Origin: Candidatus Omnitrophota bacterium
GTDB taxonomy: Bacteria; Omnitrophota; Gorgyraeia; Zapsychrales; Zapsychraceae
Assembly (NCBI GenBank): GCA_016212005.1
Contig: JACRHP010000053.1
Span: forward strand, 2,402-66,401
Direction: 5' to 3'
Length of the DNA: 64,000 nucleotides
A program made the position numbers and the translations under genes. Numbering within the stretch: position 1 is the stretch's first letter; each line of letters starts with the position of its first letter. Under the pieces are notes generated by a model that searched no databases, was not told where the DNA came from, and saw only the letters and a list, made by a program, of their open reading frames with translations. Positions 50,277 to 63,297 of the stretch are shown here, one piece after another.

Positions 50277-51593
50277 ATGACGACCATGTCGTATAATTTA
50301 TTGTTCATCTATGTTTTTCCGTTGTTGTTTGTGAGTGTCGTCTACGCGCTGTACCGACGGCAACGTGAACAAAAAAATCTGGCGCTTCAAAAAGATGAAT
50401 TTGACGCCGGATTGATTGAGCCTCCCTCCCTGCATCCCCGGATCGACCCGGCCAAATGCCTCGGCTGCGGGGCCTGTGTTACGGCCTGCCCGGAACAGAC
50501 CGTCCTGGGACTGATCGACGGCAAGGCCCAGTTGATCGCCCCGACCCGCTGCATCGGACACGGCGCGTGCAAGACGGCGTGTCCGTTTGACGCCATCTCG
50601 CTTGTTTTCGGCACGGAAAAAAGAGGGATGGATATCCCTTTTGTCCAGCCGAATTTTGAAACCAACGTCCCCGGCATTTTTATCGCCGGTGAGCTGGGCG
50701 GCATGGGACTTATCCGTAACGCTGTTGAGCAGGGGCGTCAGGCCATGGATGCTATCAGCGGAAAACTGCGGCAGGCGCTCAAAGCGGAAGGGATCTACGA
50801 TGTGGTGATTATCGGCGCCGGCCCGGCCGGGTTTTCCGCTTCGCTGGCGGCGATCGCCCATAAACTGAATTATCTGACGCTGGAACAGGAAAGTTTCGGC
50901 GGGATGGTGGCCCATTATCCACGCGGCAAAGTTGTTATGACCCAGCCTGCGGAGTTACCTCTTATCGGCAAGATGGACTTCAGGGAAATCAGCAAGGAAG
51001 GATTGCTGGAATTCTGGCAAAAGGCCAGGGCGCGCGCGGGCGTGCGGATCAGCTTTAATGAGCAGGTCGAGAGAATTTTCAAGGAAGACGACCATTGGGT
51101 AATCAAAACATTTAAAGGGGAATACAAGGCGCGCGCGGTATTGCTCGCCATCGGCCGCCGGGGAACGCCGCGAAAGCTCGGAGTCCCGGGTGAGGAAAAA
51201 TCAAAGGTCGTTTACCGGCTGATCGATCCGCAGCAGTATCGCTCCATGCAGGTGCTGGTCGTCGGCGGCGGCGACAGCGCCCTGGAGGCGGCCGCCTCGC
51301 TGGTTGATGTCGAGAAAACGACAGTCACGCTTTCTTATCGGGGCGACGCCTTCGGCCGCGCCCGGCAGAAAAACCGCGAAAAAGTGCAGGCCGCCAGCCG
51401 GGACGGACGTTTGAAGAGCATCCTTAGATCCAACGTCAAGGAGATCCGCGACCGGGAAGTTGTTCTCGAGCAGGAAGGCCGGGAACTGATAGTTCCCAAC
51501 GATGCCGTGATCGTCTGCGCCGGCGGTATTTTACCCGCCGTATTCTTAAAGGAAACAGGTGTCGAGGTTGAGACGAAATATGGGACGGCATAA
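50277..51593 (+). CDS. Membrane-anchored 2x[4Fe-4S] ferredoxin-domain / FAD-NAD(P)-binding oxidoreductase (thioredoxin-reductase-like fold)
   Basis: N-terminal TM helix (LLFIYVFPLLFVSVVYALY). CLGCGACVTACP and CIGHGACKTACP ferredoxin motifs. DVVIIGAGPAGFSA and VLVVGGGDSALEAA dinucleotide motifs. Confidence 0.75.
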   Translation: MTTMSYNLLFIYVFPLLFVSVVYALYRRQREQKNLALQKDEFDAGLIEPPSLHPRIDPAKCLGCGACVTACPEQTVLGLIDGKAQLIAPTRCIGHGACKTACPFDAISLVFGTEKRGMDIPFVQPNFETNVPGIFIAGELGGMGLIRNAVEQGRQAMDAISGKLRQALKAEGIYDVVIIGAGPAGFSASLAAIAHKLNYLTLEQESFGGMVAHYPRGKVVMTQPAELPLIGKMDFREISKEGLLEFWQKARARAGVRISFNEQVERIFKEDDHWVIKTFKGEYKARAVLLAIGRRGTPRKLGVPGEEKSKVVYRLIDPQQYRSMQVLVVGGGDSALEAAASLVDVEKTTVTLSYRGDAFGRARQKNREKVQAASRDGRLKSILRSNVKEIRDREVVLEQEGRELIVPNDAVIVCAGGILPAVFLKETGVEVETKYGTA

Positions 51594-53592
51594 AAAATTG
51601 CGACGTAATTTTTTTTTGATTTTGATCATTATGACGACGGCCGTGACGACGGCAATGGCGGGGGAGAATGTTCCGGAAGAAGCAAAACGGGCCGTTCGCA
51701 TGCGTGAATATACGAAAGCTGCCGGGTTGTTCCAGGGGCTGGCAGAACAGGGCGACGCGGACGCGCAGTATCAGCTGGGAATTCTTTATCAGCAAGGCAA
51801 AGGGGTTCCCAAAGACCACGAACAGGCGTTCCAATGGTTTCAAAAGGCGGCGGAAAGCGGACACGTGAAAGCTCAATACAGTTTGGCTACCATGTACGAA
51901 AACGGTTGGGGTGTTACCGCTGACGAACAATACGCTGCCAGCTGGTATCAGAAGGCGGCTGACCAGGGATATCCGCAGGCCATCGCCAGAGTCAAGGAAA
52001 TCCAGGTTAAGGGTTTCGTGAGTGAGCGCAAGGCGAACTTTTCCCGGGAAGAATTATTTTTGCTGGCCGCGGGAGACGGCGATATCCCCGGCCTTGGACG
52101 GTCGATAGATGGCGGGGTTGATATTAATACGCGCGATCGTTTCGGCCGCACGGCGCTGATGGAGGCGGTCCGGAATGGCTATGGGGAAGTTGTTCGTTTT
52201 TTGATCCAAAAAGGCGCTGATCCGGAAATATTTAATAGTGAAGGGGACAACGCGCTTTTGATCGCCGCCGGCAAGGGATCGGATGAGCTGGCGCGCGTGC
52301 TGGTGGACGCCGGCGCCGGGATCGACGCGGCCAACCGCTACGGGTATACGCCGTTGATGCTGGCGGTCCAGCGCGATGATCTCGCGCTGGTCGAATTTTT
52401 CCTCGGGCACGGCTGCGACGTGGCCAGGGAAAATGTCGAGGGACAAAATGCCTTGCATATCGCCCGGGTTAAAGGATATGAGGATATAGTACAGCGGTTA
52501 CTGGCGACGGGGAAGGTCGCGCTGGTCTCCCCAAAGCAGAAGGAAGATTCCCTGGCGGCGGTCGTAGCGAAACTCAAGACCGCCAAGGAGCTCAATGAGA
52601 ATGCGCCCTTTGGAAAATGGCCGCCGTTATCCCTGGCGGCCTGGCGCGGGGAAACGGAACTTGTCCGCCATCTTCTGGCCGGCGGTGTCGACGTCAACGC
52701 GGTATCGACGGATGGTTACACGGCCTTGAGCCTGGCCTCCTGGAAAGGGCATGATGAGGCGGTGGAGATCCTTCTTGACGCCAAGGCTAAAATGTTTCCG
52801 GCCGCCGATGAAAATATCTCCGCGCTTGTCCTGGCGGCCCAAAACGGCCATGATGGAGTGGTGCGTCGTTTGCTGGAGGGATATCCGGCGGTCATCCAGG
52901 ACGCGCCGGGCATTGTCGACAAGGCCATGCACGCGGCCATTGAAGATGGCCACGGGAAAGTAGTGCAGGCGATCCTGCGGCAGGGTGTTCTGTTGAGCAT
53001 CCCCGAATCAAAAAAGGCGCCATATCTTTTGTCCGCGGCGAAAAAAGGCGACGTCGCCATGATCGATATATTTCTTGATTACGGGGTGGATATCAATACA
53101 ATCGATGAGGACGGGAAAACGGCCCTCATACTGGCCGCGGAGGCGGGGCAAGGCGATGTCGTCCAATATTTGCTTGAGAAAAAAGGCGTTGCGCTGGATT
53201 TGCGGGACCATCAGGGGCATACGGCGCTTTTGGCCGCGGCGGCTACCGGCCGGGAGGATATCGTTTCCCTGCTTGTGAAAACGGGCAGTGCTATTGATAT
53301 CCCGGATGCGGGCGGGAATACGCCCTTATTGCTGGCGGCCGGAGCGGGGCATTCCGCCATCGTCGAAGAATTGATCCGAAAAGGCGCCCGCGTTGACGCG
53401 ACCAACGCCGCGGGCAACAGCGCCCTGGTGGCCGCGATCAAACGCGAAGATAAAGTTGTCGCCAAAATATTGCTGGATCACGGCGCCAACCCGTATCTTC
53501 CCTTAAAGAAGCTCGACCATATCAGTGAAGAGATGAAAGAGTTGTTGGGACAATACCGGAGCACAAAAAAATGGCTCAAGGAAATATTCTGA
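51580..53592 (+). CDS. Secreted Sel1-repeat + ankyrin-repeat protein
   Basis: Signal peptide (FFLILIIMTTAVTTAMA). Three Sel1-like repeats (DADAQYQLGILYQQGKGVPKD...). Then roughly a dozen or more ankyrin repeats (G.TALM.A...G....V..L...GAD pattern). Confidence 0.8.
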   Translation: MGRHKKLRRNFFLILIIMTTAVTTAMAGENVPEEAKRAVRMREYTKAAGLFQGLAEQGDADAQYQLGILYQQGKGVPKDHEQAFQWFQKAAESGHVKAQYSLATMYENGWGVTADEQYAASWYQKAADQGYPQAIARVKEIQVKGFVSERKANFSREELFLLAAGDGDIPGLGRSIDGGVDINTRDRFGRTALMEAVRNGYGEVVRFLIQKGADPEIFNSEGDNALLIAAGKGSDELARVLVDAGAGIDAANRYGYTPLMLAVQRDDLALVEFFLGHGCDVARENVEGQNALHIARVKGYEDIVQRLLATGKVALVSPKQKEDSLAAVVAKLKTAKELNENAPFGKWPPLSLAAWRGETELVRHLLAGGVDVNAVSTDGYTALSLASWKGHDEAVEILLDAKAKMFPAADENISALVLAAQNGHDGVVRRLLEGYPAVIQDAPGIVDKAMHAAIEDGHGKVVQAILRQGVLLSIPESKKAPYLLSAAKKGDVAMIDIFLDYGVDINTIDEDGKTALILAAEAGQGDVVQYLLEKKGVALDLRDHQGHTALLAAAATGREDIVSLLVKTGSAIDIPDAGGNTPLLLAAGAGHSAIVEELIRKGARVDATNAAGNSALVAAIKREDKVVAKILLDHGANPYLPLKKLDHISEEMKELLGQYRSTKKWLKEIF

Positions 53593-54485
53593 CACACCCT
53601 TCTTCCCGCGGTGAGGCGTCATCATTTTTTCATGTCTTCTTGAAACACCTCAGCGATTCGGCGTCGTTTTTGTTTTCTCTGGTCATTATTTTTATCCTTT
53701 TCGTCGGATGGCGCTTGCGGTCGTATCATCTGATTACGGCCGAGCACGGCGTTGGCTACGCATTGGGGGTCATTGGCGTTCTCATGATGCTCGCCCTTTT
53801 AATTTATCCTTTGCGCAAAAGATATCCCTCTTTGCGTTTTCTGGGGGGCGTGAAGATGTGGTTCCGCGTCCACATGGTGCTGGGCATCCTCGGGCCGGTA
53901 TGCATTTTATTCCACGCCAATTTCCAATTGGGGTCGCTTAACAGCAACGTGGCCCTGTTCTCGATGCTGATCGTGGCCACCAGCGGCCTCATCGGACGGT
54001 ATATTTATACCAAAATCCATTACGGGTTGTACGGACAGCGCGCGACACTGCTTGAGCTGCAGAAAAATTTTGGTCTTCAAAAAGATGAATTGAGCCCGCA
54101 GTTCGCGCTTGTTCCCGGCGTTCAGGAAATACTTTTCCCCTTCGCCCAGGAACTGTTGACGCCGTCGGGATCCCTTTCCCTCAGCATCCGGCGTGTTTTG
54201 AGCACGGGCTGGCGCGCCAGGCTGTTGCGCTGGAATATCCGCGGCATCGTCCACGCTTATCTGCGGCAACACACCCGGGACCACAAGTGGAGCTGGTCCC
54301 GGCAGCGCGGCATGCAGCGCCAGATGCAGCGTAAAGTCTCCCAATTCCTCACCCAGACCGCGAGGGTCAGCCAGTTCGGTTTCTATGAGCGGCTGTTTTC
54401 GCTTTGGCACGTTCTGCATTTGCCGCTCGCCTGCGTGATGGCGGTCGCGGTCGTGATCCACGTTATCGCGGTCCATCTTTATTAG
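53571..54485 (+). CDS. Hypothetical polytopic membrane protein with conserved intramembrane histidines (possible b-haem carrier)
   Basis: About five predicted TM helices. His pairs lie in helices (FRVHMVLGILGPVCILFHANF; WHVLHLPLACVMAVAVVIHVIAVH). A long basic cytoplasmic loop is present. No family recognised. Confidence 0.5.
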   Translation: MAQGNILTHPSSRGEASSFFHVFLKHLSDSASFLFSLVIIFILFVGWRLRSYHLITAEHGVGYALGVIGVLMMLALLIYPLRKRYPSLRFLGGVKMWFRVHMVLGILGPVCILFHANFQLGSLNSNVALFSMLIVATSGLIGRYIYTKIHYGLYGQRATLLELQKNFGLQKDELSPQFALVPGVQEILFPFAQELLTPSGSLSLSIRRVLSTGWRARLLRWNIRGIVHAYLRQHTRDHKWSWSRQRGMQRQMQRKVSQFLTQTARVSQFGFYERLFSLWHVLHLPLACVMAVAVVIHVIAVHLY

Positions 54486-54623: not shown

Positions 54624-56327
54624 ATGGCAAGATGGATCATTTATTGGGTGGTGGTGGCAACCGCAGGGGTGTTCGCCTTTAAGGTTTTTCAAAGAGATTC
54701 CCTCCAGACATTGGTCACACCCGGGGCTTTGACCAAAGCGCACGCCCAATACGAAAAAAAATGTGACGCGTGTCACGCGCCTTTTAGCAAGGAAACCCAG
54801 AACAATTTGTGCGTTGAGTGTCACAAGACAATCGGGGAAGAGATGAAAAACAGTCTGGGGCTTCATGGGCGGCTGGCGGCGGTAAAGGAAGGTAAATGCA
54901 CCCGTTGTCATACTGATCACCGGGGGCGGGATTTTGATATTGTCGGCCTGGTGAAGGAGGGCTTCACCCATCAGTTCACCGATTTCACGCTGGCCGGCGC
55001 CCATACCCGTCCGGGTATCGGCTGTGACGCCTGCCACGCACCGGGGAAGAAGTTCCGTGAGGCGCCGGTGGATTGTTTCAGCTGTCATCAGAAAGATGAC
55101 GCCCATCAGGGAAAGTTGGGCGCGCAATGTTCCCAGTGCCACAACGAAACCTCGTGGCAGAAGACCTATTTTGACCACCGCCAGACGCGTTTCCCGTTAA
55201 AAGGCAAACATGAGCAATTAGCTTGTGACGCGTGCCATGCCGACCGGACGTACAAAAACGCGCCCGTTGAATGCGCGGGGTGTCATTTGATCAACGATAT
55301 CCATGACAGTCCCCTGGATGAAAAATGTTCCCGGTGCCATGTGGAAGATGACTGGAAAAAGGTTTCTTTCGATCATAACAAGGAGACAAAATTTGTTCTG
55401 GAAGGAGCGCATACCCAAACGGCCTGTGACGCCTGCCACACAGGGTTTTCTTTTAAGGGAAATAAGCCGGGAGCGCAATGTATTGACTGCCATCAGGGGG
55501 ATGATATCCATAAGGGCCGCTATGCTACCCGCTGTGATCAATGTCACGTTCTGGCGTCATGGAAAGAAGTCCGTTTTGATCACGCCAGGGACACAAAATT
55601 TCAGCTTAAAGGCGCGCACAGCCAGGTGAAATGTGAAGCGTGCCACCAAGAGGCCGCTTCCGGGATAAAACTTGAGACCTCCTGCGCGAGTTGTCATCAA
55701 GGGGACGACATCCATAAAGGGGAACTGGGGGCACAATGTTCCCAGTGTCACAACGAGAATGGCTGGGGGGAGCGGATAGTTTTTGACCATGATCTGACGA
55801 AGTTTCCTTTGATCGGATTGCACGCGGTCACTTCGTGTGATGAATGTCATCTTTCCCCGACGTTCAAGGATGTCAGGACCGATTGCCTTTCTTGCCATCG
55901 GGACGACGATGAACATCGCGGGACGCTCGGGAGCGGTTGCGGCCAGTGCCATAATCCCAACGGCTGGCGGTTGTGGGAATTCGACCATGATAACCAGACG
56001 AAATTCAAGCTGGAGGGAGCCCACGCGGGGCTAAAGTGTCAGGAATGTCACACCCGGCCCATGGACGGGCAGGTGGTCAAACAAAAATCGGACTGTTTGG
56101 AATGTCACGCGAAAGATGATGCGCATCAGGGACGTTTTGGTGTACAATGTGCTCTGTGCCATTTTGCCGATTCATTTAAAAGGATCAAAGAGTTCCACAA
56201 TGTGCCGGAAACAAAAAATTGTTTCAGCTGTCATGAGCAAGACGATGTCCATGACGGGCATTTCGGCCGGCAGTGCGGCCAGTGCCATACTGTCGAATCC
56301 TTTAAAAAGATCATTATGAGCAACTGA
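54624..56327 (+). CDS. Multihaem c-type cytochrome, 23 CxxCH motifs, repeated c7/c3-like trihaem modules
   Basis: I counted 23 CxxCH motifs in the translation. A recurring module CxxCH...CxxCH(x)DD(x)H.G..G..CxxCH...FDH occurs about seven times. The N-terminal hydrophobic segment MARWIIYWVVVATAGVFAF has no obvious cleavage site. Confidence 0.9.
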   Translation: MARWIIYWVVVATAGVFAFKVFQRDSLQTLVTPGALTKAHAQYEKKCDACHAPFSKETQNNLCVECHKTIGEEMKNSLGLHGRLAAVKEGKCTRCHTDHRGRDFDIVGLVKEGFTHQFTDFTLAGAHTRPGIGCDACHAPGKKFREAPVDCFSCHQKDDAHQGKLGAQCSQCHNETSWQKTYFDHRQTRFPLKGKHEQLACDACHADRTYKNAPVECAGCHLINDIHDSPLDEKCSRCHVEDDWKKVSFDHNKETKFVLEGAHTQTACDACHTGFSFKGNKPGAQCIDCHQGDDIHKGRYATRCDQCHVLASWKEVRFDHARDTKFQLKGAHSQVKCEACHQEAASGIKLETSCASCHQGDDIHKGELGAQCSQCHNENGWGERIVFDHDLTKFPLIGLHAVTSCDECHLSPTFKDVRTDCLSCHRDDDEHRGTLGSGCGQCHNPNGWRLWEFDHDNQTKFKLEGAHAGLKCQECHTRPMDGQVVKQKSDCLECHAKDDAHQGRFGVQCALCHFADSFKRIKEFHNVPETKNCFSCHEQDDVHDGHFGRQCGQCHTVESFKKIIMSN

Positions 56328-58213
56328 TGTTTGTGCCGGGGCAGTTATTGCAGATGTCAAAAAGGATCATTTTCGTTTTGTTGTTCGTTTTTTTGTGGGT
56401 TCCGCGGGCTGACGCGCAGCGCATTGACTTTGACCATTTTGCCGCGGGATTCCCTTTGACGGGAGCCCACGCTGGACTTGACTGCGAAAGCTGTCATGTC
56501 CGCGGTATTTTTAAAGGAACACCCACGCAGTGCGCTTCCTGTCATAAGCAGGGAGGGAACGTTTCCGCCACCCCGACGCCCGCCAACCATATCAACACCA
56601 CCAATGAATGCGAGGCTTGCCATACGACCGAGAGCATGAGCACGGTCACCCGCCTGGACCATTCGGCCGTTCTGGGAACTTGCGTCAGTTGTCACAATGG
56701 CGTCAAGGCAGCCGGAAAATCAGCGACCCATATTATGAGTTCAAAGGATTGCGCCCAGTGCCATACGACCATGAACTGGGGTTCGGCCCGTTTCGATCAC
56801 GCGGCGGTCACTGGAAAATGCAGCAGTTGCCATAACGGCACCAGTGCCACGGGCAAATCGGCCAGACATATTCCCAGTTCCAATAATTGCGATGATTGTC
56901 ACACGACGACGAGCTGGAGCGGCGCGCGGTTCGATCACAGTTCAGCAACCGGGACATGCAGCAGTTGTCATAACGGGACGATGGCAACGGGCAAATCGCC
57001 GACGCATATCCCCAGTTCGAACAATTGCGGGGATTGTCACACGACGACAAGCTGGAGCTCGGCGCGTTTTGACCACGGTGCGGTGACGGGAAGCTGCTCC
57101 AGTTGCCACAATGGAACAACGGCCACAGGTAAATCGGCCCGGCACATGAGTACGACCAACGCGTGCGCGGATTGCCATAGTACCAGTACCTGGATACCGG
57201 TCGTACGGGTGGACCATGCGTCAGTCAACGGGACCTGTTACAGCTGCCACAACGGGACGACGGCTCCGGGCAAGATCCCGACGCACATCGCGAGTTCGAA
57301 TAACTGCGATGATTGTCACACGACAACAAGCTGGAGCGGCGCGCGGTTCGACCACGGCGCGGTGACGGGAAGTTGCAGCAGCTGCCATAACGGGACGAGC
57401 GCGACCGGCAAATCGCCAACGCATATGAATACGGCCAACACGTGTGAGGATTGCCACAGCGTGAACACGTGGTCTCCGGTCATGCGGGTGGACCACTCCG
57501 CGGTCAACGGGACCTGTTACGGTTGTCACAGCGGGACAACGGCCACGGGTAAAACTCCGACGCACATCGCGAGTTCGAATAACTGCGATGATTGTCACAC
57601 GACCAACGCGTGGACGCCTGCGGTCTTTGACCATGGTTCGACAACAGGGACGTGTTTCAGTTGCCACAACGGAACGACGGCCACGGGTAAAACTCCGACG
57701 CACATCGCGAGCTCCAATACGTGCGACGATTGCCACACGACGGTCGCCTGGATCCCGGCCAATTTTGACCACGGGTCGGTAACGGGAAGCTGCAGCAGCT
57801 GTCATAACGGGACAATGGCGACCGGAAAACCAGGCAACCATTTTGTGACCACTCTGCAATGCGATGAGTGTCACACCGTGTCCGCATGGTTGCCGACGCG
57901 TCCCTATAATCATTCCTCCGGTGAGTATCCGGGAGACCACCGCTCCAGCGTCACCTGTCTGGATTGTCACAAATCCAATAGCCAGGCGGCAACATGGACC
58001 TACGCCAGTTACCGGCCGGACTGCGCGGGCTGTCATGCCGGAAGATATAAGCAGGATGCGCACAAGAAATATGAAACCCCGACGACGGCCTTTTACACGG
58101 TGAGCGAACTGCGGGATTGCGCCGGTTCCTGCCACCTGTACACCGACAGCGGTATGACGACGGTCAAGAAATCCAGGACGGGAGAGCATCGCGTTTCAAA
58201 CGGCGACTTCTGA
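56327..58213 (+). CDS. Multihaem c-type cytochrome, 23 CxxCH + 1 CxxxCH, doubled-CXXCH tandem repeats
   Basis: Signal peptide (alternative start M10: MSKRIIFVLLFVFLWVPRADA). Nine ~46-aa units follow the pattern FDH-x6-CSSCHNGTxATGKxxxHIxSSNNCDDCHTTxxW. The terminal motif is CAGSCH. Confidence 0.9.
   Translation: MFVPGQLLQMSKRIIFVLLFVFLWVPRADAQRIDFDHFAAGFPLTGAHAGLDCESCHVRGIFKGTPTQCASCHKQGGNVSATPTPANHINTTNECEACHTTESMSTVTRLDHSAVLGTCVSCHNGVKAAGKSATHIMSSKDCAQCHTTMNWGSARFDHAAVTGKCSSCHNGTSATGKSARHIPSSNNCDDCHTTTSWSGARFDHSSATGTCSSCHNGTMATGKSPTHIPSSNNCGDCHTTTSWSSARFDHGAVTGSCSSCHNGTTATGKSARHMSTTNACADCHSTSTWIPVVRVDHASVNGTCYSCHNGTTAPGKIPTHIASSNNCDDCHTTTSWSGARFDHGAVTGSCSSCHNGTSATGKSPTHMNTANTCEDCHSVNTWSPVMRVDHSAVNGTCYGCHSGTTATGKTPTHIASSNNCDDCHTTNAWTPAVFDHGSTTGTCFSCHNGTTATGKTPTHIASSNTCDDCHTTVAWIPANFDHGSVTGSCSSCHNGTMATGKPGNHFVTTLQCDECHTVSAWLPTRPYNHSSGEYPGDHRSSVTCLDCHKSNSQAATWTYASYRPDCAGCHAGRYKQDAHKKYETPTTAFYTVSELRDCAGSCHLYTDSGMTTVKKSRTGEHRVSNGDF
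56645..57887 (+). repeat. Intragenic tandem repeat, ~138 nt x ~9 (one di-haem unit each)
   Basis: Long near-identical DNA stretches recur. For example, aataattgcgatgattgtcacacgacgacgagctggagcggcgcgcggttcga at ~56880 matches aataactgcgatgattgtcacacgacaacaagctggagcggcgcgcggttcga at ~57297, with another copy at ~57577. Confidence 0.85.
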
Positions 58214-62280: not shown

Positions 62281-63297
62281 ATGAAAGAGTCATCATTCCT
62301 CCAGGCCTTCCAGGGCACCAACAAGCAGATCCCCGTCTGGTTCATGCGCCAGGCCGGGCGGTATCTTCCCGAATATCAGGCCCTGAAGAAAAAGCATTCC
62401 CTGCAGAAAATGTTTGACACGCCGGAGTTGGCCGCGGAAATCACCTGTCTTCCTGTCGATATTTTGGGCGTCGACGCCGCGATTTTATTCGCCGATATCC
62501 TGACGCTGCCCAAACAAATGGGCTTTGATATCCGCTTTGATGACCGCCACGGGCCGGTCATCGGGGGTACGGTCGCCGGCGACCTGCACCACCGTGAAGA
62601 CATCCATGACGCGGACGATTTTTCCGGCCTGACGAAAACGATCCGTTTGGTCAACGAACAGCTTGACGGCCGGGTCCCCTTGATCGGCTTTGCCGGATCG
62701 CCTTTTACGGTGTTGACGTATTTGATCGAAGGCGGTTCCTCCGTCAACTTCACCCGGACGTTCCGGTTCATCAACGAACATCCCGTGCATTTTCAGGCGT
62801 GGATGGAATTGTTGACGCAAAACACGGTCCGTTACCTGACCGCGCAGAAAGAGGCGGGCATCAAGGCCTTTCAACTGTTCGACAGCTGGGCGGGGATCCT
62901 GCGGCCGGCGGATTTCGCCCGCTGGGTTTTGCCTTTCGCGCGCCGGATCTTCGCGGAGGTCGATCTGCCGTCGATCTATTTTGTGCGCAACTGCGCGCAT
63001 CTGCTGGCGCTGATGGACCAATCGGAAGCCGATTTCTTATCCGTCGACCACACGGTTGTCCTCGGGCACCACACGGTCATCGAGAAAACGAAAAAAGGCA
63101 TTCAGGGGAATCTGTTCAACGGCCTTTTGTACGCGGACGACGCCACGCTAGCCAGGGAAGTGCGCGATGTTTTAGTCGGCGGCGTCAAACACGGCCGGTA
63201 CATCTTCAATCTAAGCCACGGCGTTTTCCCCGATACGGACCCCGACAAGCTCAAGTTCATCGTGGAGCAGGTGCATTCGTTTAAGAAGAAAACTTAA
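62281..63297 (+). CDS. hemE: Uroporphyrinogen decarboxylase
   Basis: PVWFMRQAGRYLPEY signature, FADILT and FDSWAG. Confidence 0.9.
   Translation: MKESSFLQAFQGTNKQIPVWFMRQAGRYLPEYQALKKKHSLQKMFDTPELAAEITCLPVDILGVDAAILFADILTLPKQMGFDIRFDDRHGPVIGGTVAGDLHHREDIHDADDFSGLTKTIRLVNEQLDGRVPLIGFAGSPFTVLTYLIEGGSSVNFTRTFRFINEHPVHFQAWMELLTQNTVRYLTAQKEAGIKAFQLFDSWAGILRPADFARWVLPFARRIFAEVDLPSIYFVRNCAHLLALMDQSEADFLSVDHTVVLGHHTVIEKTKKGIQGNLFNGLLYADDATLAREVRDVLVGGVKHGRYIFNLSHGVFPDTDPDKLKFIVEQVHSFKKKT

Follow-up and report, generated by a model that had tools for sequence, protein, structure and literature searches.

A PCC3-type multihaem cytochrome gene of a Candidatus Omnitrophota bacterium with a modular array of old di-haem units that appear to exchange short patches of sequence

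Introduction

Among the described electron-transfer systems, the porin-cytochrome gene clusters of the PCC3 type, which were proposed by He et al. (2017; PMC5566968) and surveyed in the Gallionellaceae by Hoover et al. (2023; PMC9900912), are closest to the locus presented here. This locus lies in a stretch of 64,000 nucleotides (nt) of a Candidatus Omnitrophota bacterium (assembly GCA_016212005.1, contig JACRHP010000053.1, positions 2,402 to 66,401 of the forward strand), which is referred to as the window and whose coordinates are used for all nucleotide positions below. Its central gene encodes a cytochrome with 24 putative haem sites, most of which are contributed by an array of nine tandem di-haem units, numbered u1 to u9 in the 5' to 3' direction. 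The relationships among these units, and the way in which their number varies across the gene family, are the focus of this study.

The repeats of PCC3 cytochromes and their widely differing haem numbers, which reach 85, were already noted by He et al., whose supplement describes extracellular-cytochrome repeats of 44 amino acids (aa) at a spacing of 47 aa in Leptothrix cholodnii and periplasmic repeats of about 66 aa (PMC5566968). For PCC3 of the Gallionellaceae, haem numbers of 10-35 have been reported (Hoover et al., PMC9900912), and the haems of the periplasmic PCC3 cytochrome number about 21-27 and are arranged in ~66-aa repeats (PMC5566968; PMC9900912). The inner-membrane protein of the system has been described as a protein of ~300 aa with five transmembrane helices, a WX3HX13H motif on helices 3 and 5 and an SGxxG motif on helix 4, and it has been likened to the membrane domain of ferric reductases and NADPH oxidases (He et al., 2017; PMC5566968). 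A wire of stacked haems has been proposed for PCC3, while the surface location and a role in extracellular electron transfer are still hypotheses in this literature (PMC5566968; PMC9900912).

The four genes of the window follow one another in the same order as Slit_1446-1449, which constitute PCC3 of Sideroxydans lithotrophicus ES-1. The likeness extends to the extracellular-type cytochrome, which is rich in threonine, serine, alanine and glycine, has ~26 aa per haem and is built of ~46-aa repeats, and to the motifs of the inner-membrane protein. The window differs from the described clusters in that its periplasmic cytochrome contains 23 CxxCH motifs instead of the usual 21, 24 or 27, and in that even the best full-length relative of its long cytochrome is only 65% identical. 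The cluster is, as judged from these features, a PCC3-type porin-cytochrome gene cluster, an assignment that is based on gene order, motifs and repeats as published. Both the PCC3 system and its repetitive nature have thus been published before, and the window holds one more PCC3 cluster, from a genome that is absent from the collections searched, and not a new kind of system.

A more distant likeness exists to MtrCAB and MtoAB, with their decahaem proteins MtrA/DmsE and MtrC/MtrF, which likewise combine a periplasmic multihaem cytochrome, an outer-membrane barrel and a surface multihaem cytochrome. These systems differ from the present one by having 10 haems, compared with 24 in a modular array here, and by an unlike porin and inner-membrane partner. 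Membership in the MtrA/DmsE family (TIGR03508) was considered and rejected, the score of 95.6 bits lying below the cutoff of 192.2; this is a resemblance only.

We consider it probable that the array represents the central modules of the PCC3 long cytochrome, and that these are old modules which swap patches of sequence, within a family in which the module count changes in register.

Old units with patches of shared sequence

The 24-haem gene and its parts are arranged as follows.

56327-58213, plus strand: gene of the PCC3 "extracellular" multihaem cytochrome, 628 aa, with 24 haem sites laid out 3 + 18 + 3
56327-56416, plus strand: putative signal peptide, MFVPGQLLQMSKRIIFVLLFVFLWVPRADA followed by Q, as read directly from the sequence
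56417-56650, plus strand: N-terminal tri-haem domain, conserved among family members, with haem sites at aa 53, 69 and 95
56651-57898, plus strand: array of nine di-haem units, u1 to u9, of 46 aa each (u4 and u6, 47 aa)
57899-58210, plus strand: C-terminal tri-haem domain, which contains the conserved CxxxCH site CAGSCH (aa 598; nt 58118-58135)

An earlier note on this DNA, which was made from the letters and their open reading frames without database searches, had placed nine tandem di-haem units of ~138 nt at 56645-57887, within a 24-haem gene whose final haem site is an unusual CAGSCH. The array is real, with measured limits that lie a few bases away at its start and 11 at its end; the haem count holds (23 CxxCH and one CxxxCH), and the consensus motif quoted for the unit is correct. 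The units begin at 56651, 56789, 56927, 57065, 57206, 57344, 57485, 57623 and 57761, and are 138 nt long in seven of nine cases and 141 nt in u4 and u6. Tandem Repeats Finder describes the array by a period of 138 (7.5 copies, 66% matches) and by a higher-order period of 279 (2.7 copies, 76%). Each unit contains two CxxCH motifs and two additional histidines, one in an FDH motif and the other in an xxHI motif, and both of these are invariant in the units that can be aligned across 32 family members.

Whole units share 54-80% of their nucleotides and 41-80% of their amino acids in pairwise comparison, with u5-u7 (80% nt) and u2-u3 (78% nt) as the best pairs and u4-u6 at 72% nt. The near-identical DNA copies of which the earlier note had spoken are found as patches of shared sequence and not in the units as such. 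For all 36 unit pairs, the codons shared at positions with the same amino acid were compared with the expectation from the codon usage of the gene. In most pairs, synonymous codon matches are at chance level; u5-u7 (z=4.6) and u2-u3 (z=3.7) show a clear excess, the values of another six pairs, u3-u5 among them, are no higher than z=2.1-2.6, and u4-u6 has z=0.9. Because most unit pairs match at chance level, the synonymous sites can be regarded as saturated and the units as old, and we take the nine units to be old paralogues, not recent duplicates.

On this background of divergence, two pairs of exactly matching stretches stand out, one of 47 nt and one of 35 nt.

57278-57324, plus strand: candidate conversion tract in u5, 47 nt in exact match to 57557-57603 in u7
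57557-57603, plus strand: candidate conversion tract in u7, partner of the u5 tract at 57278-57324
57539-57573, plus strand: second candidate tract in u7, 35 nt in exact match to 57677-57711 in u8, overlapping the first u7 tract
57677-57711, plus strand: candidate tract in u8, partner of the u7 tract at 57539-57573

The third-longest exact repeat measures 23 nt and starts at 56912 and 57329 (u2 and u5). The similar runs at ~56880, ~57297 and ~57577, to which the earlier note had drawn attention, were found again as near matches of 55 out of 60 nt (56874-56933 versus 57291-57350, and 57267 versus 57546) and as an exact string of 20 nt that is common to 56888, 57305 and 57584.

Two null models were used to evaluate the longest runs. 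In the first, synonymous codons were resampled with the protein held fixed (300 trials, with the codon usage of the gene itself or of its neighbours), and the longest exact run had a mean of 18 nt and a maximum of 29 nt, compared with the 47 nt observed. The second was a permutation test of the Sawyer type on the 93 columns that are polymorphic in the alignment of the nine units, in which the u5-u7 run of 33 sites was reached in none of 5000 permutations (global P<0.0002) and the u7-u8 run of 23 sites was significant at P=0.004. When third codon positions alone are considered, u5-u7 is still significant (P=0.007). The residues of the u5/u7 tract are encoded with different synonymous codons in L007, the nearest orthologue (see below), which argues that the identity of u5 and u7 is not a matter of conservation at the nucleotide level. 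Furthermore, u7 is a mosaic in which a stretch shared with u8 is followed, with some overlap, by one shared with u5. Short gene-conversion tracts between old units are supported by these tests as the best reading of the patchy identity, and the gene conversion that the earlier note had suggested would thereby be borne out.

The closest orthologue and the descent of the units

The locus L007, from a metagenome-assembled genome (MAG) labelled Alphaproteobacteria, is the nearest full-length relative across the cluster, with amino acid identities to the window of 65% for the long cytochrome, 53% for the porin, 51% for the periplasmic cytochrome and 49% for the inner-membrane protein. From the first unit to the last, its haem-spacing vector is identical to that of the window, with the units of 47 aa likewise at positions 4 and 6, and the nine-unit layout can therefore be placed before the split between the window and L007. 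Individual units tell a different story from the layout. The units u4 and u6 of L007 are 98% identical to one another in amino acids and 91% in nucleotides, versus only 62% aa identity to u4 and u6 of the window; within the window, u5 and u7 share 78% of their amino acids, and u7 of the window shares 65% with u7 of L007. As these values illustrate, units are often closer to neighbours in the same genome than to their positional counterparts.

A phylogeny of individual units had been proposed in the earlier note as a means of detecting concerted evolution. In a neighbour-joining tree of the units of 24-haem genes from four genomes, interior units are grouped by genome, u9 is grouped by position in all four, and u8 of the window is paired with u8 of L007. 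This pattern is the signature of concerted evolution, or of turnover of interior units, with the last unit remaining positionally orthologous.

The most serious alternative is that of a recent tandem duplication, for example of the block u4u5 to give u6u7, in which case the shared patches would be remnants that have not yet diverged. Such an event would account for the 279-nt higher-order period and for the similarity of the pairs at this offset (u5-u7 and u4-u6), and relatives do provide examples of block duplications that are very recent, with repeats of 233-615 nt in exact match. However, divergence along the block is very uneven, the codon matches of u4-u6 being at chance and the excess in u5-u7 being concentrated in one 47-nt run; the mosaic of u7, u8-like in one stretch and u5-like in the next, is likewise at odds with it, and the nine-unit layout is already present in L007 at 65% aa identity. 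The recent unit duplication that the earlier note had put forward for the gene of the window finds no support in view of the chance-level codon matches of most pairs and of the shared layout, and we regard it as unlikely.

Haem number across the family

In a scan of one genome per species, coding sequences for the conserved C-terminal domain were found at 567 loci or more; 80 of these loci were fetched. Their hosts are labelled Alpha- and Gammaproteobacteria, Thermodesulfobacteriota, Nitrospirae, Nitrospinaceae and tubeworm endosymbionts, and the MAGs that harbour the best relatives of the cluster bear the labels Alphaproteobacteria, Nitrospirae, Thermodesulfobacteriota and Planctomycetales. 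Neither the assembly collection nor an exact look-up yielded a protein that is identical or nearly so, and a metagenome scan with the C-terminal 150 aa gave best matches of 62-69% identity and no relative from the same species.

Complete long-cytochrome genes encode 13 to 73 CxxCH motifs, nearly always together with one CxxxCH. The latter is present as a single motif in nearly all orthologues, and its residues C598, C602 and H603 are invariant in the 32 family members and in a 17-sequence alignment (A1). A unit count common to all orthologues, which the earlier note had considered as an indication of a static array, is not what is found: in 50 complete genes with a standard N-terminal domain, haem totals range from 14 to 74, are even in all but two, and have their mode at 24 (9/50). 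The periplasmic partner covers a narrower range of 12-29 haems, mostly 18-27, with 21 haems in 26 of 48 loci, followed by 24, 18 and 27 and by five outliers between 12 and 29. A periplasmic partner with 23 haems is found in the window and L007 only, and most relatives have multiples of three; the 23 haems look as if one site of the last tri-haem repeat had been lost.

The differences in the long cytochrome are in register with the units. L071 and L078 are 92.5% identical and separated by one clean gap of 92 aa, which corresponds to exactly two units; the alignment of L009 with L014 (88.5% identical) shows a single gap of 93 aa, and that of L015 with L020 (78% identical) a single gap of 92 aa. 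In all seven close comparisons with unequal counts, the difference is a multiple of four haems. The proposal of the earlier note that haem number is a recombination-variable trait is sustained at the level of the family, by the range of 14-74 and by indels of 92-93 aa at 78-93% identity; at the level of strains there is no evidence for it, and most of the closest pairs, with C-terminal domains ~93% identical or more, have the same count, with the exception of L071 versus L073 and L078 at 96%.

Exact in-frame internal repeats of at least 40 nt occur in 41 of 77 genes and of at least 100 nt in 14 of 77, with a maximum of 615 nt in L010. Where the repeats are longest, in the top 30 genes, the two copies lie an integral number of units apart, mostly one or two, and the 47 nt at offset 279 in the window are an ordinary value for the family. 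The longest exact DNA repeat of the periplasmic cytochrome gene of the window is 17 nt or less.

In the assemblies of L010, L020, L038 and L048, the long cytochrome gene contains exact internal repeats of 229-615 nt, and their haem counts could well be collapsed or expanded. The MAG MFD04651.bin.1.233 holds three PCC3 loci (L015, L016 and L020): two of its long cytochromes contain 20 haems each and do not differ in their C-terminal domains, and the third has 24 haems and an exact repeat of 247 nt. The three loci may represent paralogous clusters or a strain-mixed bin.

These observations bear on a second alternative, namely that the array owes its form to collapse, expansion or chimera formation during assembly, in which case neither the unit number nor the mosaic would be biological. 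The window probably stems from a metagenome assembly, arrays of repeats are known to be hazardous to assemble, and exact repeats of several hundred nucleotides do exist in some relatives. The longest exact repeat in the gene of the window, by contrast, is 47 nt. A length of 47 nt is below the usual read length and below the larger k-mers used in assembly. The reading frame is moreover intact over 628 codons, and the haem-spacing pattern is identical in the independent assembly of L007, all of which makes an artefact very unlikely. The assembly hazard of which the earlier note had warned is consequently low in the window and real in relatives such as L010.

As a last alternative, protein constraint and codon bias, mRNA selection or chance might have produced the identity without any recombination, which would fit the location of the tracts in the most conserved part of the unit (the distal histidine and the second CxxCH) but is hardly credible given that resampled runs never exceeded 29 nt, that third positions alone are significant for u5-u7, and that other units of the gene, as well as L007, encode the same residues with different codons.

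A module-based model of the array

The anatomy of the gene, the excess of patch identity, the synteny, the variation of counts with its indels across the family and the grouping of interior units by genome are observations, to which we add by inference the ligation of the haems, the geometry of the wire, a location outside the cell, a function in electron transfer and the mechanism of recombination. Two CxxCH motifs and two invariant histidines per unit fit one pair of bis-His low-spin haems in each module, and this pattern, together with the low number of residues per haem (26.2 aa in a protein of which 43% is T, S, A or G), fits a stacked-haem wire. The haems would thus be bis-His ligated and stacked in a roughly linear electron wire, to which each module would add two haems of length, so that the number of units would translate into wire length. 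The similarity of the units would at the same time provide the substrate for non-reciprocal transfer of patches and for unequal exchange in register. Interior modules may trade patches of 35-47 nt through gene conversion, a non-reciprocal form of homologous recombination, and would for this reason evolve in concert, while the last module appears to have remained orthologous by position in each of the four genomes. In the family as a whole, modules would be gained and lost in register, mostly two at a time (92-93 aa, four haems), and in the lineage of the window the nine-module layout would have been fixed since the split from the nearest available relative.

Pfam matches of the 24-haem protein comprise Cytochrome_C7, Cytochrom_c3_2 and Paired_CXXCH_1; the di-haem unit matches the last of these (PF09699) with 47.9 bits, above the gathering threshold of 20.6, a domain label that is silent on the system, and it reaches 23.7 bits with the doubled-CXXCH model TIGR01905, just under the cutoff of 25.2. 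Neither the single-sequence search nor the family-profile search identified a close relative among solved structures. The former gave a marginal match to 6f0k_A alone, and the latter weak matches to MtrC (domain II), MtrF, the chain 6r2q_A and Hmc, with E values of 1e-10 to 8e-8 for MtrC, 6r2q_A and MtrF. In the table of matches to the Protein Data Bank, 6r2q_A carries the label "Cystathionine beta-synthase", which looks wrong; 6R2Q is presumably the MtrCAB complex of Shewanella baltica, with MtrA as chain A.

Several points weigh against this model or limit it. The unit count of the window is that of the assembly, and no relative of the same species or genus by which the conversions could be dated or oriented was found in the collections searched. 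With 24 as the modal count, the number common to the window and L007 could partly reflect convergence, against which the identical 46/47-aa pattern argues. A turnover of interior units through birth and death would likewise lead to clustering by genome. Prediction with AlphaFold2 from the 32-sequence family alignment gave an unusable model (mean predicted local distance difference test score, pLDDT, 48.5; predicted template modelling score, pTM, 0.22), and this unreliability leaves the wire geometry to inference. Finally, the function and extracellular location of PCC3 are hypothetical in the literature, and proteomic detection in Sideroxydans is low.

Genes encoding surface proteins with tandem repeats are known that evolve in concert. 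The array resembles such genes in that interior repeats are homogenised, the edge repeat is positionally orthologous and in-register indels change the repeat number; it differs from them in that each repeat holds two redox cofactors, so that the number of repeats sets the number of electron-transfer centres. In the literature searched, nothing relevant was found beyond He et al.; no DNA-level account of PCC3 conversion tracts, two-unit indels, clustering of units by genome or concerted evolution was met with in it, and neither the conserved terminal CxxxCH nor the contrast between a variable outer and a constrained periplasmic cytochrome was found described. The DNA-level description given here is an incremental addition, in line with the standard behaviour of repeat genes.

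Further features of the gene and its neighbourhood

The signal peptide of the 24-haem protein is probably cleaved after ADA. No lipobox cysteine is apparent in it when it is read from the sequence, and a second in-frame ATG (Met10) provides an alternative start. An antisense open reading frame of 322 aa (57221-58189, minus strand), rich in arginine, proline and valine, spans the repeat array; it looks like a by-product of the repeated T, S, G, C and H codons of the sense strand and not like a gene. A scan for promoters and terminators revealed nothing above the expectation from shuffled sequence.

The remaining genes of the cluster, which together with the 24-haem gene form a series of four adjacent genes on the plus strand in the order inner-membrane protein, periplasmic cytochrome, 24-haem cytochrome and outer-membrane protein, are the following.

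53571-54485, plus strand: PCC3 inner-membrane protein, a putative di-haem b protein of 304 aa with five hydrophobic segments
54624-56327, plus strand: PCC3 periplasmic multihaem cytochrome, 567 aa, 23 CxxCH motifs in tri-haem repeats of ~67 aa
58266-60392, plus strand: PCC3 outer-membrane protein, 708 aa, with an N-terminal TPR region and a presumed beta-barrel

The inner-membrane protein carries WX3HX13H at aa 97 (W97 to H115, segment 3) and at aa 279 (W279 to H297, segment 5), as well as SGLIG, an SGxxG motif, at aa 138 in segment 4, and its homologues occupy the same position in the fetched loci. The stop codon TGA of the periplasmic cytochrome gene overlaps the ATG of the 24-haem gene by one base. 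The 708-aa protein has a signal-like N-terminus, the C-terminal end GYRLTF and only weak TPR matches in Pfam; homologues of it are encoded directly 3' of the cytochrome gene in nearly all loci. The synteny of the four genes is kept in almost all of the 80 loci where the contig permits, and homologous syntenic loci include those of tubeworm endosymbionts (L035, L053 and L076). The hosts of these three loci are taken here to belong to the group of the Riftia endosymbiont, which He et al. list as PCC3-bearing.

Upstream and downstream of the cluster, the window contains the following genes.

50277-51593, plus strand: protein of 438 aa with a ferredoxin domain and an FAD/NAD(P) disulfide-reductase-like domain
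51559-53592, plus strand: ankyrin and Sel1/TPR repeat protein, 677 aa
60490-61848, plus strand: hemN, oxygen-independent coproporphyrinogen III oxidase (539 bits)
62281-63297, plus strand: hemE, uroporphyrinogen decarboxylase (338 bits)

Each of the two upstream genes is found beside the cluster in 17 of the 31 loci with enough upstream sequence, and both together, co-directional or divergent, in 16; loci with these genes include L004, L007, L008, L012, L021, L028, L041, L043, L046, L059, L066, L077 and L079. The flavoprotein is 55-68% identical across loci and thereby better conserved than the PCC3 proteins. The words ferredoxin, FAD and ankyrin are absent from the main text of He et al. (2017; PMC5566968). 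Since the same authors compare the inner-membrane protein, as regards the membrane domain, with ferric reductases and NADPH oxidases, one may speculate that the 438-aa flavoprotein acts as its cytoplasmic partner. Each set of the cytochromes encoded by the operon requires 47 c-type haems, and hemN and hemE lie directly 3' of it; the fetched loci did not show the same linkage, tblastn with both proteins giving no alignment longer than 120 aa.

Implications for the PCC3 family

The family comparison suggests a rule for the length of the long cytochrome, according to which the conserved N- and C-terminal tri-haem domains are fixed and the di-haem modules between them are gained and lost in register. 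The step would be four haems, or a multiple of four, as in every close pair with unequal counts, and gene conversion would keep the interior modules alike. In-register gain and loss of modules would explain the wide haem counts reported for PCC3. A practical warning follows for relatives with exact repeats of several hundred nucleotides, for which counts derived from short reads may be wrong.

A further-reaching possibility, which we offer tentatively and hold to be doubtful at present, is that the PCC3 extracellular gene is a length-tunable locus, in which recombination in register, preferably in steps of two modules, acts fast on an ecological scale and conversion keeps the interior modules interchangeable. 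If this were true, the family would offer a natural length series of one module type, from 14 to 74 haems, for experiments on how conduction depends on haem number and electron transport on the length of the wire.

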